A program made the position numbers and the translations under genes. The notes beneath the pieces were generated by a model. It saw nothing but the letters and a program-made list of their open reading frames with translations. It was not told the origin of the DNA and searched no databases. This document shows, in pieces, positions 4,001 through 49,744 of a DNA stretch of 64,000 nt. The DNA is taken from the IMG/VR virus record IMGVR_UViG_3300025413_001239; one strand, given 5' to 3'. This stretch comes from a virus. Lineage: Duplodnaviria; Caudoviricetes. The stretch's first letter is position 1. Each line of letters opens with the position of its first letter.

Positions 4001-5760
4001 ATCCTTATGGTACTTATTCAAAAGATGGTTCTACTGATTCTCAGGCTGCTAAATTTGACAGAATAGCTTCAGTTACCTTTACTATTGACCCAGAAAAAAT
4101 ACCAATTGAACAACCAAAAATCACACCTATTAATGGTAGTATACCAAGTAGTTTTAGTAATGGGTTTTTAAAAAGATTTTATACTGAATTAGATTTTTTT
4201 GAAAAATTACAAAAAGGTGACCCAGCTAATGGGATTCCAGCAGATACATTTATTTTTGATAAATTTAGGGAAAAAATAAGATATTTTCACCCATCATTTC
4301 ATTCTATTACACCTGAAGGATTTAATTCTAGATTAACATTTTTATTACAGTGTACAAGACAAGGTGCAACACAAAATTCAACTGGTGACCCACAAAATTT
4401 AGCATTTGGTCAACCACCAGTTTGTATTTTAAGAATTGGTGATTTTTATAACACAAAAATAATGATTGATAATGTTACCTTTAATTTTGATGATAACCTG
4501 TGGGATTTAAATCCTGAGGGTATAGGTGTTCAACCGATGATTACAACTGTTAATATATCATTTAAATATATTGGTGGTTCAACGCTTTATGGACCTATTA
4601 ATAAGCTTCAAAATGCTTTATCTTTTAATTATTTTGCAAATGCTCAAGTTTATGACCCAAGAGCTGATTTTATCACTAAATCACCAGATATTGTTGTAAA
4701 AGGTGAGACTCCTTCTGACCCAGATACTAAAAATCAACAAACAGCTTTTGATGCTCAAAAGTATCAATTAAATACTGGTTTAAATCCTTTAACACAATCA
4801 ATGGGTAAAATTACAGATGCTGAAATTGAAAAATTATTTGGTCCATCACAAAGTGATATACAACCAATAAATGCTCAAATTGCTGCAAATCCTAATACTA
4901 GCTTAACTGATATACAAAGACTAGAACTTTATAATTTATCGGCAGATACAACATCATGGTATTTCAATATTGGTAGGAAAGATTTAACCGATGATGGTTC
5001 GTTAAAACAAGATTACCCTTTATCTGTTAATATTATTGATGGTACAAACACATATAATATTGATTTAACAACTTACTTAGCTGATGATACACCATTAAAA
5101 AGTAATGAAACAAGTCAAGATTTTTCATTTCCATTTACATACTTAATACCTAATTTTACTGGTATAACACCTAATATAAATTATACTTTTAATGTAAAAG
5201 TTGGTGATGCTGGTACTTTAACAGGAAATTATAGTGGTGATACACTAATCAATTCTTCAAGTGCATCATCATCTGATAAAGCACCAAAAATTGTTGGGTT
5301 TAAAAGTTATGAAATTCATTCAACTCTTTATGATTATGTTTATACATTTAATGTTAGTATAAATACAGAAAATATTTATATCATATGTGGCAATACTATT
5401 ACTCAAATAATAAGTGATTCAGAATTACAAAGTTTTGTAAATAAAGGTATAAAAATAACACTCGAAAATTCTGTTAATCCAAGTGATTTTTCAGAATCGT
5501 TAATTATTAATTATCCAGTATACACCCCAATTAATGGAGATATAAATAATGGTTCTATTTGTACAAAAAATTGTGATAACCCATTAGGTCAAGCTGTTGG
5601 TAGTATTGGCGTTTATCTTGGTTCACCAATAGGGTCTAACCCTACAGTTAAATTAGTTGATGGAACTTATGTGTTGAAATTATGGTATAATGGAACAATA
5701 ATACAAAAATCAATGGTTCAAATACCTTTTGATGGTTCTAGTCAAACTAAATATTTTTAA
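1081..5760 (+). CDS. Baseplate/tail-tube initiator-like protein (two gp48/gp54-like tube domains flanking an OmpA-like domain)
   Basis: Tube-like motifs GRIMWFPPYDLTFSE...IGRGEPIYTYNNTERTGNLSF and PPVCILRIGDFYNTKIMIDNVTF...PMITTVNISF. OmpA-like core ISGKAS...NSQLAQERAKSL...DRIASVTF. Sits next to the LysM and hub genes. Confidence 0.65.
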   Translation: MPLYYNTSIPTDSTRNTINSVTVGTVTGNDIRDFLLSKNIINPIKYPQKAIFQGTGPLGGEPVLDTFANNGDSVINQLPIESETFRYENNVINNRFVNSDGLPPTFVKIEYQLIESNPDYPTSPNPDNGTTDYYKEDRNKYGILPKSNLLSYREKSTLKNLYVDNTKQVDVSDYIVLQPINTNSQISGGYLDKYGGINLGQGVAVQAANILGSAINGQGIGISNLNGGLSNSFDIRSSLAGRALTAAGILKDTKLGVIGGQQLALALANNAAFNTQKQILGLFDVSTDITNIIQGKGLNGFRKNYTITVPSNTKPLTYVEKVLGFYTPNSFLSSDGSPFSNENGYVTDMQWTNSMLINTGDGQIDSLTANIKANLGLGKNVSNGYNQDDTPFRSGYSPGYTDHKRKFIVNPNGYAFMTTKGDLYPFVNALTTTTGGTTTTNKVIPDLNWNREAIVVDYGFVSPEDGNIHYNVDDGAPFKTNFTWITNNGDALNSNKGGITFQGDLATPSNNKKSLLWKTQLLFNDKGMKNIVSVKGDMGIKKSTQIQTVSSVGGISKGSAVLTNWMFNPKDGSIMKNATGQTADNTFCRAWTPYNRYDSLSKLIRSAGINQAETPGNGNTIQNRWRLNYQGSVLDDNGFVKIVPYKTDKDIDRSGTYGGGIPTSPKKYMFSIENLAWAGQAASNLLPIEQGPGDLLTGKFGRIMWFPPYDLTFSETSNVSLETTNFIGRGEPIYTYNNTERTGNLSFKIFADHSSIMNTFAGKNGPSEDFVRSFLSGCIDLEASWGNKFTYDEMHQVKIKTVTEVPKQQVVKPPIYIFSFYFPNDVYDINYTRNLNDGTLVKFYEHNSKHENKNGDSVDGIGVYAGQEGNNWVDNTNYDFNLGVEGPTGKKYDSVFSPNFISDLNTWLNTEIKDGGCKGCTARISGKASSQTVANNINSQLAQERAKSLNEFITSNFPNVKCKITKTNVGTGNNPYGTYSKDGSTDSQAAKFDRIASVTFTIDPEKIPIEQPKITPINGSIPSSFSNGFLKRFYTELDFFEKLQKGDPANGIPADTFIFDKFREKIRYFHPSFHSITPEGFNSRLTFLLQCTRQGATQNSTGDPQNLAFGQPPVCILRIGDFYNTKIMIDNVTFNFDDNLWDLNPEGIGVQPMITTVNISFKYIGGSTLYGPINKLQNALSFNYFANAQVYDPRADFITKSPDIVVKGETPSDPDTKNQQTAFDAQKYQLNTGLNPLTQSMGKITDAEIEKLFGPSQSDIQPINAQIAANPNTSLTDIQRLELYNLSADTTSWYFNIGRKDLTDDGSLKQDYPLSVNIIDGTNTYNIDLTTYLADDTPLKSNETSQDFSFPFTYLIPNFTGITPNINYTFNVKVGDAGTLTGNYSGDTLINSSSASSSDKAPKIVGFKSYEIHSTLYDYVYTFNVSINTENIYIICGNTITQIISDSELQSFVNKGIKITLENSVNPSDFSESLIINYPVYTPINGDINNGSICTKNCDNPLGQAVGSIGVYLGSPIGSNPTVKLVDGTYVLKLWYNGTIIQKSMVQIPFDGSSQTKYF

Positions 5761-40801: not shown

Positions 40802-41044
40802 ATGCCATTAGTAATAAAAAAAATAGAAGGTAAGTTTTTGGATAATTATGTAAGTAATATACCAATATATAGTATGTTATCCGCCACAATACAAAATAGC
40901 GATTATATAAATGTTAATGGTGAAATATTTTTTTTACAAAACTATTCAAAAGTTAATACGTTAACACAAGGAAAAACCTTATTAAGTTATGGTTTAAAAA
41001 ATAATTATAATTTACCAACCTCAGTTTTACAATTGTCATACTAA
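40802..41044 (+). CDS. Small hypothetical protein
   Basis: 80-aa ORF coupled to the next gene by a TAATG overlap. Confidence 0.5.
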   Translation: MPLVIKKIEGKFLDNYVSNIPIYSMLSATIQNSDYINVNGEIFFLQNYSKVNTLTQGKTLLSYGLKNNYNLPTSVLQLSY

Positions 41045-43769: not shown

Positions 43770-45926
43770 ATGTCATATATAATACCAAGTACTTCACCAT
43801 TTGTTTCAATTAAATTAACCGATGTTGGACGTTCACAACTAGCACAAGGTCAATTAACTTTTTCATCTTGGGCGATTGGTGATTCAGAATTAGATTATAG
43901 TAGAGAAGCATTAGTTAACGCAAACCCAAGTGACCCAATTCTATCATTACCTTCTAAAGTTTTTAGGACTTTTGATTTACAACCAAATATTAAATCTTTT
44001 ATCACAACAGAAGGTGGTTCAAATTTAAATCCTATAACATCGGCAAACTTAAATGTTGTCGTTGCAACTGTTAATAATCAAGCCACAGAAAGAGGATTCT
44101 TTGTAAATAATACGACATACTACTCAACACAAACTGGTTCACCATATACCCTTGATGTTACAACTATACCAAATTCTGGAATAACTGGTGGTACTTCTGT
44201 TATTGTGAATTATGGTTTAAATATTTCAACTGGTAATTTTGTTAGACTTAAATTATCAACTAATATCGGTACAGCACAATATGATTCATTAACAAGAAAT
44301 ACGCACCCAGCTGCAAATCTATGGTATAAGATTCAATCAACTGGTATTACAAATACTGGTAATGTTATTTTAAATTTAGATAGAACTTTACCTAATTTTT
44401 CAATATATAGTGGTAATTCATTTGCTTATTTTTACCCTAATGGTGAAGTTGCTGATACTTTTGGTAGTTCAAATTCAACAGCTTATTGGGATAGTGGTAC
44501 ACTTTCTTTTGATTCAGCAACAAACATTACATGTTCAGATGTTAAAGTTTGGAATATGAATAATGTTTGGACTGAAAATTTAGCTGGTGTAACTGGTCTT
44601 TCAACAACTCAATTATATGAAGACTATACTAGGTTTGGTTCATATACATATACTGGAACTAAAAACCCATATTTAGAGTATTTAACAGTTACTAGTAATT
44701 CAACAACTAATTCGATTAACTGTAATGGTATAGGTAATAGTTATTTAGATACTATCAGTAAATCATTATCAATAATACATTACACAAATAATACGATTTC
44801 TAATTTATACGGTGACTTCTTTTTTATTGACACTATAAATAATAAAGTTGTTAATATTACAATACCAGATTTAATGTACCATAATATTGGATACAGTTCT
44901 GCCTCTGGTAAAACAATGGGAATGTCATTTGTATCTAGTGGTACAACACAAACGATTGGGAATAGCGATATCCAATATATGACATTAATCGAAAACCCAA
45001 CCTATCTTAGCGGTTCATCAGCACCACAAGTTGTTGGTAAAGTTTTCCCACAATTAAAAATGGTTGTAATTGATAATGATGAAATTGTCGCCGCATTATC
45101 CTATAAGTCAAATAGAAACTGGACACTTCCACCATTAGCGGCCACACTTACAGCACCAGTTGGTGCCACAGGCGTATTAGGAATTGGTGAAACAATGTAC
45201 TTAACATATGCACTAGATAATACTTCTGGAAGTGGATATACACCAACATTACCATGTCAATCCTACATAAAGATTACAAATAGTACTACAACATCAAGAG
45301 ACGTACAATTTCATATTTCACAACAAGGTTTATTACCTTATATGAGAAAAATTGAAAATGCTGGATATGATGGTTTAGGTTTTTATGCAACAAACTTTAA
45401 GTTGGTTTATCAAATGATTGATGACCCTAATGCAAGACCTGACCCAGCAATGTGGCAAGTTTACGATTTCACATCAACAGCAATTACTAGTGTTGCAGGT
45501 CAAACAATTGACCCAATATTATTAGAAAATCCAATACCGTTAGCTAATGGTTTTATATTAACCGCAGCAATTAATACGGCATCAACGACTTATGATATAA
45601 CGCAAAGTCTAGGTATGGCACCAAATTCTAATTCAAATATTTTACAATTTGGTGATGAAAGATTCTTCTATGGTAATTTAACAACATATATTGGTTCAAA
45701 TATATATAAAACAATATTTGATATTAGCATAAATTCAGCACAATTTTCTGAAACTACGAATCCTACTAGAAGTAAGCTACCATCAACTAATCCACCACCA
45801 ATTGAAGTTTCTGAAGTTGGTATATATGATAATAACAATAATTTGGTTGTAATTGGTAAATTAAGCGAACCAGTACAATTAACTAAAAACGATACAGTAA
45901 TGTTCGAATTGTCGCTAGATTTCTAA
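43770..45926 (+). CDS. Tail-fibre attachment-type protein (DUF3751 / P2 gpH-N-like termini with a large insert)
   Basis: N-terminal LTDVGRSQLAQG...WAIGDSELDY and C-terminal VSEVGIYDNNNNLVVIGKL...LDF. Confidence 0.55.
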   Translation: MSYIIPSTSPFVSIKLTDVGRSQLAQGQLTFSSWAIGDSELDYSREALVNANPSDPILSLPSKVFRTFDLQPNIKSFITTEGGSNLNPITSANLNVVVATVNNQATERGFFVNNTTYYSTQTGSPYTLDVTTIPNSGITGGTSVIVNYGLNISTGNFVRLKLSTNIGTAQYDSLTRNTHPAANLWYKIQSTGITNTGNVILNLDRTLPNFSIYSGNSFAYFYPNGEVADTFGSSNSTAYWDSGTLSFDSATNITCSDVKVWNMNNVWTENLAGVTGLSTTQLYEDYTRFGSYTYTGTKNPYLEYLTVTSNSTTNSINCNGIGNSYLDTISKSLSIIHYTNNTISNLYGDFFFIDTINNKVVNITIPDLMYHNIGYSSASGKTMGMSFVSSGTTQTIGNSDIQYMTLIENPTYLSGSSAPQVVGKVFPQLKMVVIDNDEIVAALSYKSNRNWTLPPLAATLTAPVGATGVLGIGETMYLTYALDNTSGSGYTPTLPCQSYIKITNSTTTSRDVQFHISQQGLLPYMRKIENAGYDGLGFYATNFKLVYQMIDDPNARPDPAMWQVYDFTSTAITSVAGQTIDPILLENPIPLANGFILTAAINTASTTYDITQSLGMAPNSNSNILQFGDERFFYGNLTTYIGSNIYKTIFDISINSAQFSETTNPTRSKLPSTNPPPIEVSEVGIYDNNNNLVVIGKLSEPVQLTKNDTVMFELSLDF

Positions 45927-45939
45927 ATAAATTAATAAC

Positions 45940-47133
45940 ATGGGATATAATAATAGTTCAACAAATTTAAGTTTAAACGCAAAATTAACACCGTTAGGTA
46001 GACAAAAAATAATAACTAATGATAATGGTCTTATAACTTATTTTAGTCTTGGTGATTCTGATGCAAACTATAACGCAGCACTACCATTAGTGTCTGGTCA
46101 AGTACCAACATCTGGTGGTAATATAGGTGCAAATTCATCATCAACCAACAGTGTTGGTTTTAACTATATGATAAATAGCATGCTTATAGTTGATTCTACT
46201 GGTGCGACACAAAAAATGGTTGAACCACAATCTTCTGGTGTTACATTAACTTATAATTCAGTTGGTTTTAACACAATTACTTCTAATAATTTAACAACAA
46301 ATATTATTAATAGAAATAATAATAACACCGACCCATTAGTTAATTTATATTATAGCTTTAATTTATCATTAAATTCTACAAGTGATACAACATTAACTGG
46401 CGTAACATCAGCTGATGGTGGTTACTCAGATACAGCATTAAGTGGTTTAGCGGTATCAAATATTTTAGCAATTGGAATTAATAATTCACAATATGGTGAA
46501 ATGCTTGACGGTAAAGCAATTAGACTTACCCTAAATACACCATCCACAGCATTTACTATTTATAGTACTTTTGAAAATATAAATATTCCATTAGCTACTC
46601 AAGATGCTAATTATTCAGACCCATCAAATGATGCCGAATTATTTGGTAATATTGCATTTTTAGTTTCTGATAATATTATGAAACCTAATGGTGGTAATTC
46701 ATCATTAAGTTGGGCAACTGGTTTTAATACGGTAAAACCATTTAGTGTTAATAATAAGAGTCTTTTAAATAGAAGCACAAATACCAATATAAATTTAACT
46801 GCGGATACTATTGTTGGTATTGCTTATTTAGATAAGGGCTTTTTGGTTATTACACACCCAACAATAGTTAATAGTTTTAGTGCTGTAACATCAACAACGG
46901 TTAGTTTTAATAGTGTTTCAACATCTGTTCAGCAAAATATCACATGCATAGCTGGTAGAGGTGAATTTGGTGCTTCAAATAATACAACATTTACTATTGC
47001 GGATACACCTAGAATTACCGAAGTTGGGTTATATGATTTAGAAAATAATCTGATAGCTATAGCAAAAACAGATAGACAATTAGTTAAAAATACCAACGAT
47101 TTCTTTGCGTTATCAATAAATTTAACATTATAA
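45940..47133 (+). CDS. Paralogous tail-fibre attachment-type protein (DUF3751-like termini)
   Basis: N-terminal LTPLGRQKII...FSLGDSDANY and C-terminal ITEVGLYDLENNLIAIAK. Confidence 0.55.
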   Translation: MGYNNSSTNLSLNAKLTPLGRQKIITNDNGLITYFSLGDSDANYNAALPLVSGQVPTSGGNIGANSSSTNSVGFNYMINSMLIVDSTGATQKMVEPQSSGVTLTYNSVGFNTITSNNLTTNIINRNNNNTDPLVNLYYSFNLSLNSTSDTTLTGVTSADGGYSDTALSGLAVSNILAIGINNSQYGEMLDGKAIRLTLNTPSTAFTIYSTFENINIPLATQDANYSDPSNDAELFGNIAFLVSDNIMKPNGGNSSLSWATGFNTVKPFSVNNKSLLNRSTNTNINLTADTIVGIAYLDKGFLVITHPTIVNSFSAVTSTTVSFNSVSTSVQQNITCIAGRGEFGASNNTTFTIADTPRITEVGLYDLENNLIAIAKTDRQLVKNTNDFFALSINLTL

Positions 47134-47175
47134 ACTTTATTTTTTTAAATAAGGTTTTATATTGACTTAAAAATT

Positions 47176-47829
47176 ATGCAAGAAAATATAAATGAAAACA
47201 ATCTAATTCTTGGTTTAGATGTTTCAACTAAAACAATTGGTATAGCTCTTTTTGAAGATAAAGACGGTAAAGGTGATTTAAAATTATTACATCATGTAAC
47301 CCCAAAAGTGAAACTTGAAAAAGATTCAAAAATGGAAGAGTTATTTGAGAAAGCAAGAATTTTTGAAAAAGAATTCTTAAATGATTATGCCGATATGGGT
47401 ATAACTAGGGTTATTATTGAAGAACCTCTACTTCAGTCAAATAATGTTTACACAGTAGCAACACTTCTTAGATTTAATGGTATGATAGCTAGGTCGGTTT
47501 ATGAAACCCTTAATATTGTACCAGATTTTATTTCATCAAATGATGCAAGAAGATATGCTTTCCCACAACTATTAGCTGTTAGAACAACCAAAAAAGATGG
47601 AACAAAAAAATTAGATAAAGAAATTTCTAAGGGTACACCAGTATTATTTGGTGGTCATGATTTTGATGCTGATAAAAAGATGATTATTTGGGAACTAGTA
47701 TCCGACCTTGAACCACAAATTGGTTGGCTTTACGACAAGAAAAACAAATTAAAAAAAGAAAACTTTGATATGGCTGATGCTTTTTGTTCAGTACTTGGTT
47801 ACATGAAAAGAGAAGGACTGTGGAAATAA
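47176..47829 (+). CDS. ruvC: RuvC-like Holliday junction resolvase
   Basis: ILGLDVSTKTIG (D), VIIEEP (E) and FDMADA (DxxD) form the RNase H-fold catalytic set. Confidence 0.85.
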   Translation: MQENINENNLILGLDVSTKTIGIALFEDKDGKGDLKLLHHVTPKVKLEKDSKMEELFEKARIFEKEFLNDYADMGITRVIIEEPLLQSNNVYTVATLLRFNGMIARSVYETLNIVPDFISSNDARRYAFPQLLAVRTTKKDGTKKLDKEISKGTPVLFGGHDFDADKKMIIWELVSDLEPQIGWLYDKKNKLKKENFDMADAFCSVLGYMKREGLWK

Positions 47830-47868
47830 AAATACGCAAGTAAAAGAATCTTTTCTCACATTTTCGTA

Positions 47869-47876
47869 TATTTATA
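47869..47876 (+). promoter_or_regulatory. Putative late-promoter motif TATTTATA for the homing endonuclease
   Basis: ttcgtaTATTTATAatat immediately precedes the ATG at 47881. Confidence 0.5.
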
Positions 47877-47880
47877 ATAT

Positions 47881-48669
47881 ATGGAAAATAAATTTTTAAG
47901 AATTTTAAGTAAAGAACCAATTTGTTGCGTGTATTCAGTAACTAATAAAATAAATGGTAAGATTTATATTGGCCAATCAATTGATGTTGAACGCAGATGG
48001 TCTCAACATAAATATGGTAAAGGTAATTTAATATTAAAAAATGCTATAAAAAAATATGGTATTGATAATTTTGAATTTACAATTTTAGAGAAAGTTGATA
48101 TTGATAATAAAAGTAAAAATGATATTATTGAACTATTAACAATCATAGAACAAAAATGGTTTGATTTAAAAAAACCTTACTTAAAGGAAAATGGTTATAA
48201 TATTCAAAAGACATCCAAACCAAATTTAACACCTAATAAAGATTATAATTTTGGTCAAAAAATAAGTAAAATTAAAATCGACAATAACCATACTGGTAAA
48301 CCTTTAAATCAATATAATTTAAACGGTGATTTAATAAAAGAATGGAAATCAGCGGCTGAAATTGAAAGAGTCTTGGGGTTTAATGCTGAAAATATATCAG
48401 CATGTTGTTTAGGTAAAAGTAAAACATCAAATGGCTTTATTTGGAAATTTGTTGGTATTAAATTAACTGAACTTGAAATAATTAATTCAAAAGTTAAAAT
48501 AAGAAAAAAGAAAAAAGTTGCAAAATATTCATTAACTGGTGAATTAATTGAAGTATTCGATTCATTAATAGATGCAGCTAAAAATGTTGGTTGTCCACAA
48601 TATCAAATTTCAAAAGTTTGTACTGGTGTACAAAAAACATGTAGAAATTATAAATGGGTTTTTATATAA
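47881..48669 (+). CDS. GIY-YIG homing endonuclease with two NUMOD1/IENR1-like DNA-binding repeats
   Basis: CVYSVTNKINGKIYIGQS...RRWSQH, IEQKW, GYNI. Two repeats: QYNLNGDLIKEWKSAAE...FIWKF and KYSLTGELIEVFDS...YKWVF. Confidence 0.92.
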   Translation: MENKFLRILSKEPICCVYSVTNKINGKIYIGQSIDVERRWSQHKYGKGNLILKNAIKKYGIDNFEFTILEKVDIDNKSKNDIIELLTIIEQKWFDLKKPYLKENGYNIQKTSKPNLTPNKDYNFGQKISKIKIDNNHTGKPLNQYNLNGDLIKEWKSAAEIERVLGFNAENISACCLGKSKTSNGFIWKFVGIKLTELEIINSKVKIRKKKKVAKYSLTGELIEVFDSLIDAAKNVGCPQYQISKVCTGVQKTCRNYKWVFI

Positions 48670-48679
48670 TAAATCGGTT

Positions 48680-48739
48680 ATGGCTGATGCACTAACGTGT
48701 GTTGTTGGATATATGCGTAAAAATAATTTTTGGAAATAA
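48680..48739 (+). pseudogene. Displaced second copy of the ruvC 3' end (MADALTCVVGYMRKNNFWK*)
   Basis: Exactly 60 nt, matching 47770-47829 (MADAFCSVLGYMKREGLWK*). 10 of 19 aa are identical and the stop is at the same position. Confidence 0.85.
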
Positions 48740-48740
48740 T

Positions 48741-48771
48741 TTGTTTTTATTTATTATTTCCCGTAACTTTG
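48741..48771 (+). promoter_or_regulatory. Bacteroidota-type promoter (TTG-N20-TAACTTTG)
   Basis: TTG at 48741-48743, TAACTTTG at 48764-48771, GTG start 4 nt downstream. Confidence 0.7.
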
Positions 48772-48775
48772 CCTT

Positions 48776-49744
48776 GTGGCATACTTAATAGATATATTTG
48801 AATCATTTTTAGGTGAATACAGAAAGTATAACGAAGATTCTCAGCAGGCATCTTTCGATTGTCCCTCATGTTCAATCGATAAAGGTATGCCAGATGGTGA
48901 TGGTAAAGGCAACCTAGAATTAAATTACCAAAAAAACGTATTTAAATGCTGGGTATGTAAGGACACTCACTATATGAGTGGTTCCATCATAAAATTAATT
49001 AAAAAATACGGTTCTGAAAAAAATCTAAGAGATTATAAACTCTTTAGACCAGATGCTTTTATAACTAATGAAGATAAAGAACACATTAGTATAACCCTAC
49101 CCGAAGGATATAAAAAATTATCCGAATGCAATTCAAAAGACTTTAAGTCAACATTAGCCCTAAATTACTTAAAAGAACGTAATATAACCGATGATATTAT
49201 CAAAAAATTTGATATAGGTTATACTTATAGGGGTAAATTTTTTAATAGAATCATAATACCATCATATGATGAGGATGGTGTATTAAATTACTTTATAGCT
49301 AGATGGTTTGATAAACAATACGGTGCTATGAAGTATTTAAACCCAACCGTTGAAAAACAATCAATTATCTTTAATGAACAAAAGATAAATTGGGATGCGA
49401 ATATCTACTTAGTAGAAGGTGTTACCGACCATATTGTGGTACCAAATTCAATTCCAATGTTAGGGAAATTTATATCCCCAAATTTACATTATAAATTATA
49501 CGAAAAAGCCAAAGCAAATATTATTATTCTATTGGATGGTGATGCTGTTGATGATGCGATTAATTTGTATAAAAAACTTGATTTTGGTGATTTAACTGGT
49601 AGGATAAGAATTTGTTTCCCACCAGAAGATTATGACCCAAGTCTTATTAATGAAAAATTTGGTAAACGTGGAATAATTAAACTTTTAAGCTATTCTGATA
49701 AGCTTGAAAAAGCTATCCAACTTGAAATACTTGGAAGTAAGTAA
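48776..49744 (+). CDS. DNA primase (Zn finger + TOPRIM)
   Basis: CPSC...FKCWVC zinc finger, NRIIIPSYD, KYLNP, YLVEGVTD, LLDGDA. GTG start. Confidence 0.9.
   Translation: MAYLIDIFESFLGEYRKYNEDSQQASFDCPSCSIDKGMPDGDGKGNLELNYQKNVFKCWVCKDTHYMSGSIIKLIKKYGSEKNLRDYKLFRPDAFITNEDKEHISITLPEGYKKLSECNSKDFKSTLALNYLKERNITDDIIKKFDIGYTYRGKFFNRIIIPSYDEDGVLNYFIARWFDKQYGAMKYLNPTVEKQSIIFNEQKINWDANIYLVEGVTDHIVVPNSIPMLGKFISPNLHYKLYEKAKANIIILLDGDAVDDAINLYKKLDFGDLTGRIRICFPPEDYDPSLINEKFGKRGIIKLLSYSDKLEKAIQLEILGSK

Follow-up and report, generated by a model that had tools for sequence, protein, structure and literature searches.

We analyzed a 64,000-nucleotide (nt) stretch of the IMG/VR virus record IMGVR_UViG_3300025413_001239 (i.e., the window), in which a GIY-YIG homing endonuclease gene stands between a gene for a RuvC-like protein (ruvC) and a DNA primase gene, and in which the 3' end of ruvC is present twice. 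The source record, from an uncultivated virus, is 139.9 kb long and is estimated to be ~40% complete, which makes the window phage a giant phage. Three open reading frames (ORFs) follow one another on the + strand (217 codons, 47176 to 47829; 262 codons, 47881 to 48669; and 322 codons, 48776 to 49744). The third encodes a DnaG-type primase (Pfam DNAG_N; PHROG 47), which is the downstream neighbor of ruvC in all relatives. A BLASTN comparison of the region with GenBank phages gave no match.

The body of ruvC (residues 1 to 198; 47176 to 47769) ends at the first Asp of a DxxD motif, and the in-frame end that follows it (tail A; 47770 to 47829) completes the C-terminus as ENFD-MADAFCSVLGYMKREGLWK before the stop codon. 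Ten nt past the stop of the endonuclease gene, a second end begins as ATG GCT GAT GC and reads MADALTCVVGYMRKNNFWK up to its own stop (tail B; 48680 to 48739). The two junctions are marked by the 12-nt direct repeat TATGGCTGATGC (left copy, 47769 to 47780; right copy, 48679 to 48690, both on the + strand), which occurs nowhere else in the window and has a spacing of 910 nt; the pair is absent from the automatic repeat-family list and was checked by script. Deleting one 910-nt unit in silico leaves a single open ruvC of 217 codons, whose stop lies 36 nt before the GTG start codon of the primase gene. An earlier interpretation made from the letters of the window (i.e., the sequence-only reading) had described the second 60-nt tail, the 12-nt repeat, the 910-nt unit, and the restorable ruvC, and all of these coordinates hold. 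Tail B is predicted to be untranslated. A 55-codon ORF (48572 to 48739) considered as a small gene for it merely crosses the 3' end of the endonuclease gene in another frame and was judged mechanical.

Tails A and B share 10 of 19 residues and 37 of 60 nt, and both end in TGGAAATAA. Matches at codon positions 1, 2, and 3 number 13, 15, and 9 of 20, respectively; the third position is the most diverged, a pattern that marks the tails as probable alleles that diverged while coding. The C-terminal 19 residues of 119 database homologs, with the window protein excluded, served to build a hidden Markov model (HMM), which was searched against six-frame stop-to-stop pieces. Over the window, tail B scored 42.6 bits (E = 4.5e-12) and tail A scored 42.0 bits, while the next best piece scored 6.7 bits. 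The tail match is far beyond chance, and tail B is thus a complete, undecayed copy of the C-terminus of the family. Together with the spacer behind it, tail B aligns with the tail and spacer of seven relatives without this endonuclease, including a block (TAATTTG...CGTAnnTTTGCC) that is kept in endonuclease-free relatives; tail A runs into the leader of the endonuclease gene. The native ruvC stop and the 36-nt spacer (48737 to 48775) contain TTTG (48740 to 48743), 20 further nt, and TAACTTTG (48764 to 48771) just before the primase GTG. We take this arrangement to be a predicted promoter of the Bacteroidota type, and the cassette boundaries leave it intact in the window and in a related locus (L003, described below).

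The ruvC-like ORF matches PHROG 159 (RuvC-like Holliday junction resolvase; residues 11 to 214; E = 9.5e-10). No Pfam family was found for it, and a profile search of PDB sequences gave nothing meaningful, so its identity as RuvC needed a fold search. An AlphaFold model based on 23 homologs (predicted local distance difference test [pLDDT], 83; predicted template modeling [pTM] score, 0.80) was compared by Foldseek, and the top matches were the RuvC proteins of D. radiodurans, P. aeruginosa, T. thermophilus, and Lactococcus phage bIL67, with template modeling (TM) scores, normalized by the target, of 0.61 to 0.75. The leading entries (7xhj, 6lw3, 4ld0, and the phage RuvC 4ktw) were followed by Ydc2 and poxvirus resolvases. 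Four acidic positions (D15, E82/E83, D198, and D201) are invariant among the 23 homologs and sit on the first strand (residues 10 to 16), the fourth strand (residues 76 to 83), and the terminal helix (residues 194 to 212) of the model. These are presumably the positions of the four carboxylates of RuvC (D7, E66, D138, and D141 of E. coli RuvC). On the basis of the model, the protein has an RNase H-like fold nearest that of RuvC and is a putative Holliday junction resolvase. The tail belongs to the confidently modeled terminal helix (pLDDT, >90) that holds D198 and D201, and the model indicates that the protein needs it. The repeat begins between D198 and M199, so D201 lies inside the duplicated segment, which comprises the last catalytic Asp (as judged by position) and the remainder of that helix.

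The 262-codon ORF contains Pfam GIY-YIG (E = 3.2e-11), NUMOD1, and I-HmuI_NUMOD-like domains and also matches PHROG 314. Its match to the catalytic domain of I-TevI (1mk0; E = 4.5e-6) keeps the VY..YIG motif, the Arg of RRW, and the Glu and Asn positions. Because these positions are kept and the protein is full length in all nine lineages that carry it (see below), the endonuclease looks functional. The gene possesses a separate leader and stop codon and is out of frame with ruvC, and a search of Rfam with positions 47000 to 49000 gave no family match at an E value of ≤1 and, thus, no known intron. On this evidence, the gene is free-standing and neither intron- nor intein-borne, with no splicing involved; the sequence-only reading had likewise proposed invasion without splicing, which the lack of an intron RNA family match supports. 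An ORF of 373 codons near the end of the record (G000:C1:139141-139872) carries NUMOD-like repeats weakly similar to the DNA-binding part of the endonuclease.

The leader (47830 to 47880, + strand) contains two boxes, TCTTTTCTCA (47849 to 47858) and TATATTTATAATAT (47867 to 47880), the latter immediately 5' of the ATG. A conserved feature, the TCTTTTCTCA box marks the 5' edge of the endonuclease unit whether the gene is co-oriented with ruvC or antisense to it (i.e., in the window and at loci L003, L169, L171, L177, L174, L179, and L140). In cassettes with an antisense endonuclease, its complement (TGAGAAAAGA) adjoins the displaced tail. The box may be an operator, a boundary, or what is left of a target. 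A TATATTTATAAT box in the leader also stands in front of two ORFs of the window (at 40802 and 43770) and of a gene in another part of the genome (L002), and the leader plus start codon (TATATTTATAATATATGGAA) recurs before another small gene (L002; G000:C1:133937-133970). The sequence-only reading had seen here a late-type motif, consistent with late expression. We find only a shared box, which also precedes two large ORFs; it is compatible with a shared and perhaps late promoter class and is no proof of one.

Relatives of the RuvC-like protein number in the thousands in metagenomes. We assembled 160 loci carrying it from IMG/VR and Joint Genome Institute (JGI) metagenomes, a few more by exact protein look-up, and a further set of 80 loci with relatives of the endonuclease. 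In the clade of the window, the primase gene normally follows ruvC after 29 to 80 nt. Where the endonuclease shares ≥50% identity with that of the window (13 loci, L168 to L180), it always lies between ruvC and primase, which indicates that the enzyme is probably site-specific in the genomic sense. These loci, together with L097, L140, and the window, form nine distinct lineages. The endonuclease gene is co-oriented with ruvC in the window, L003, L169, L171, and L177 and antisense to it in L097, L174, L179, and L140.

Second tails follow this endonuclease. Among 178 ruvC loci, those scoring at least 20 bits were found only where the endonuclease is present (i.e., in the window, L097, L171 to L173, L174 to L176, L177/L180, and L179), which corresponds to six of the nine endonuclease lineages and to none of the endonuclease-free loci. 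In the remaining lineages, L169 has the decayed end of a second tail (AATAATTTATGGAAATAATTT, compared with AATAATTTTTGGAAATAATTT at the end of the window's), L140 has a stub that reads RKDAY only, and L003 has no second tail. The second tail opens with the Met codon that follows the first Asp in five lineages and with the second Asp in L174. It lies 0 to 10 nt past the endonuclease stop in co-oriented cassettes and abuts the endonuclease leader in antisense ones. In five of the six lineages, the downstream copy outscores the expressed (upstream) tail against the family profile. The idea that tail A travels together with the endonuclease was dropped, since endonuclease identity tracks the host and the YMNKIGKW of three cassette tails is also native in the clade.

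There are two natural pairs of occupied and empty loci. The first consists of L097, which has an antisense endonuclease, and L096, which has none; the two are ~96% identical over 1.4 kb on the left and 1.3 kb on the right. The extra 1,181 nt of L097 have TATGGCTGA at both their start and their end, which equals the first nine bases of the 12-nt repeat in the window. Between the L096 tail and the downstream copy of L097 there are 2 differences in ~60 nt; the upstream (expressed) and downstream tails of L097 agree with each other at only 40 of 57 nt. Both loci belong to a marine sister lineage with a thioredoxin-like gene (WCGPC) between ruvC and primase (L097, 5330 to 5670), so the displaced tail of L097 is followed by the thioredoxin-like gene and not by primase.

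The second pair consists of L003, whose endonuclease is 80% identical to that of the window, and L084, which lacks the endonuclease. Their flanks show two mismatches over 667 nt on the left and none over 860 nt on the right. The sole difference within this block is that the segment from ATGGCY GAT GCT TTY to the stop is replaced by another tail, the endonuclease gene, and a small ORF, and identity returns exactly at the native stop (T/TAATTTG, with the slash at the joint). Thus, the foreign tail is the one upstream of the endonuclease, and the left boundary lies again at the DxxD codons. Near-identity of the two loci is confined to the ruvC and primase block, outside of which they are only ~75% identical; the endonuclease site therefore lies in a recently exchanged patch. 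In these pairs the flanks are almost identical, yet the tails differ by ~30 to 40%, which excludes divergence in place. At the right boundary of the L003 cassette (4520 to 4545, with ruvC on the + strand), AATTTTGAT, which encodes NFD, stands right before the native stop. The NFD codons normally precede the joint, and the L003 copy may be the remnant of a longer duplication with a deleted tail or may be due to chance.

On the basis of the layout of the window and these comparisons, we propose, with a probability of about three in four, that a GIY-YIG endonuclease cassette bearing a foreign version of the last 19 ruvC codons invaded at the DxxD codons, with no splicing, and displaced the resident end to a downstream position. 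The sequence-only reading had placed the cassette at the DxxD motif with a replacement 3' end in front of the resident one, which the two pairs support directly and which extends to the window by analogy. Within the window phage, tail B is likely the resident tail, since it is in line with the native stop, the spacer, and primase and, by analogy, since the pairs L097/L096 and L003/L084 show this repeat and this joint as well. Behind tail A comes the leader of the endonuclease gene, with the TCTTTTCTCA box that all cassettes share; tail A would be the cassette-borne end. The expectation, also from that reading, that an endonuclease-free relative ends in the downstream-type tail holds in the sister pair L096/L097.

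The cassette starts at the codon after the first Asp of DxxD, and tail A is in frame, so RuvC remains complete, including the last catalytic Asp. The joint falls in the most conserved DNA block near the end of ruvC (...GARAAYTTYGAY/ATG.C.GAT). We suggest that genomes without the endonuclease are cut by it within or close to the conserved block ...GAAAAYTTYGAY/ATGNCNGAT... and that the break would be repaired from an occupied genome, whereby tail A and the endonuclease gene are copied in. With a left crossover in the ruvC body and a right crossover in tail B, each new host would retain its own tail downstream, which would explain why the downstream copy resembles the local native tail and stays intact. 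Tail B would then serve mainly as a homology arm and would keep the primase promoter in place. The occupied allele would presumably be a poor substrate, as the left half of the site is missing at tail B and as tail A deviates within the tail itself. The first formation of such a cassette would need one illegitimate join, and the two orientations would need two origins or an inversion.

Several observations weigh against this proposal. The sequence-only reading had proposed that the diverged 3' end would also destroy the cut site of the enzyme. Tail A, however, keeps the core of the presumed target (ATG.C.GAT), which leaves the immunity of the occupied allele without explanation, and a search for systematic recoding revealed no positions that consistently set cassette tails apart from native ones. 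Relative to tail A, the endonuclease unit is found in either orientation; the two therefore do not form a single rigid unit, and their history requires an inversion or several origins. The divergence of the endonuclease roughly tracks that of the hosts, and this points to a long-standing presence in addition to recent moves. As for polarity in the window, no near-identical endonuclease-free relative of the phage was present among the relatives fetched, and the locus with the closest ruvC body (L083; 90% nt identity) carries a different endonuclease. Degenerate scans of IMG/VR for either exact tail (GYMRKNNFWK and GYMKREGLWK, each followed by the stop) gave no matches. Tails A and B are equally similar to the tails of the 119 homologs ordered by body identity, which thus provide no polarity signal. 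Endonuclease-free tails of both types exist (L084, 15 of 19 residues identical to tail A; P0016, 16 of 19 identical to tail B), and L169 has a tail-B-like tail upstream of its endonuclease.

Among the alternatives, the one that survives best, and which we still consider unlikely, is that the endonuclease is an intergenic enzyme that cuts elsewhere or is inactive. The DxxD joint would then be no more than the nearest conserved block of crossover grade (i.e., the ...GARAAYTTYGAY ATG.C.GAT block), and the extra tail would be a neutral by-product of one-sided or illegitimate repair. Such a history would fit L003, which is a plain replacement without duplication, and the limitation of the L003/L084 identical block to ruvC and primase. 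Phage endonuclease genes are also often located at the boundaries of exchanged segments (PMC10448857). Against it stands the regularity described above, namely, that five diverged lineages share the codon at which the second tail starts and a sixth departs from it by no more than two codons, that this tail abuts the endonuclease unit in both orientations (0 to 10 nt from the stop when co-oriented), and that strong second tails were never seen without this endonuclease among the 178 loci.

Even less probable is the reverse polarity, in which tail A is native and the incoming cassette, composed of the endonuclease gene and tail B, was inserted exactly behind the ruvC stop. The structure is symmetrical, and the TGGAAATAA shared by the ends of both tails would permit a joint at either end. 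The similarity of the endonuclease-free L084 tail to tail A and the equal closeness of tails A and B to the tails of relatives speak in its favor as well. It is weakened by the natural pairs, given that the resident tail of L097/L096 is the downstream one and that the foreign part in L003/L084 is the tail upstream of the endonuclease, and also by tail B itself, which is joined to the native stop, the spacer, and primase as in endonuclease-free genomes. Finally, the direct-repeat layout could stem from a tandem duplication of the ruvC end at its own locus, with later divergence, or from an assembly that fused two strains, but these origins are scarcely credible. The L097 flanks are ~96% identical to those of L096 while the two L097 tails match at only 40 of 57 nt (excluding divergence in place), the differences between tails A and B are most frequent at third codon positions, as in two functional alleles, the same layouts recur in independent assemblies (L171 to L173, L174 to L176, and L177/L178/L180), and no assembler would be misled by a repeat as short as 12 nt.

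A second GIY-YIG endonuclease, antisense and ~30% identical to that of the window, lies between ruvC and primase at three loci (L083, 3650 to 5400; L169, 3380 to 4533; and L171, 3340 to 4559). A stub of the primase N-terminus (e.g., VAYISDILESFLGDSRKHNEDTGQISFD) precedes it, behind the native spacer in L083. The stub ends just short of the zinc-finger codons, and a full primase gene with a different N-terminus lies downstream, i.e., a mirror-image duplication of a 5' end. We raise, as a tentative extension of the cassette proposal, the idea that bringing along a gene end is, in this phage group, a regular third way beside introns and inteins by which endonuclease genes reside in essential genes, and that the ruvC-primase spacer is a two-sided hotspot. 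One GIY-YIG family, in either orientation, would carry a spare RuvC 3' end, with the displaced tail as its right homing arm, while the second, antisense family would act on the 5' end of primase just before the zinc-finger codons. If true, homing into the 36-nt spacer from both sides would shuffle the catalytic ends of ruvC and primase among phage lineages.

Further upstream, two large ORFs lie 5' of ruvC (718 and 397 amino acids; window positions 43770 to 47133). They are rich in Asn, Ser, and Thr and have no PHROG family. Both are syntenic with ruvC in relatives and diverge much faster than it does (~57% versus 85% identity in L003).

Three kinds of known system invite comparison. Like intron- and intein-associated homing endonucleases (I-TevI in td; I-Bth0305I in recA [PMC3239194]), the endonuclease of the window is associated with conserved catalytic codons of a gene for DNA metabolism that stays functional. 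It differs from them in that there is no splicing, no Rfam match, and no in-frame fusion, the gene has its own leader and stop, and function would be preserved by a spare gene end. From its sequence, the enzyme belongs with the free-standing Seg-type enzymes of T4-like phages. To our knowledge, the descriptions of Seg and Mob enzymes include no retained duplicate of the end of a target gene. Intronless homing by Seg (GIY-YIG) and Mob (HNH) enzymes (PMC2988022; for MobE, PMC2790892) resembles the present case in the position of an I-TevI-like GIY-YIG enzyme with NUMOD modules between conserved DNA metabolism genes, in presence/absence polymorphism at a fixed site, and in the replacement of flanks in occupied genomes. 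These enzymes are described as intergenic with coconversion of flanks (PMC2988022), while cleavage by the enzyme of the window is predicted.

The closest parallel is provided by the mobile endonuclease ORFs (mORFs) of fungal mitochondria, which make hybrid genes in Allomyces macrogynus (atp6) and in Glomus sp. (atp6, atp9 [a GIY-YIG case], cox2, and nad3) (PMC3630166). There, the gene core is followed by an in-frame foreign C-terminus, the endonuclease ORF, and the native C-terminus downstream; the native copy matches close relatives, and the inserted copy is much more diverged (PMC3630166). The four-part layout is the same as that in the window, copy identity is similar (63.5% at the nt level in Glomus atp6 [PMC3630166] versus 62% here), and the native end is fully replaced in Glomus atp9, as in L003. 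The present case differs in that it concerns a giant phage of bacteria instead of an organelle, that the target is a RuvC-like resolvase with the joint inside the catalytic DxxD motif, and that the endonuclease gene, with a leader of its own, is not an in-frame fusion, occurs in both orientations, and is known here from its sequence. A literature search revealed no gene-end-carrying cassette described for a phage and no description of ruvC as a target. The sequence-only reading had called the layout unusual, a view that we do not retain, given its recurrence in this phage group and its precedent in fungal mitochondria. Such cassettes would yield hybrid genes and short pseudo-ends that annotation pipelines overlook, shift catalytic segments between lineages, and mark recombination boundaries in giant-phage genomes. 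The layout has already been worked out in fungal mitochondria, and the cassettes open no new category; their interest lies in the clean natural pairs, the recurrence in both orientations, and the target within a catalytic motif. Beside the mitochondrial examples, the occupied and empty loci indicate that a phage homing endonuclease can reside inside the catalytic codons of a recombination enzyme with neither intron nor intein, by means of a spare gene end.

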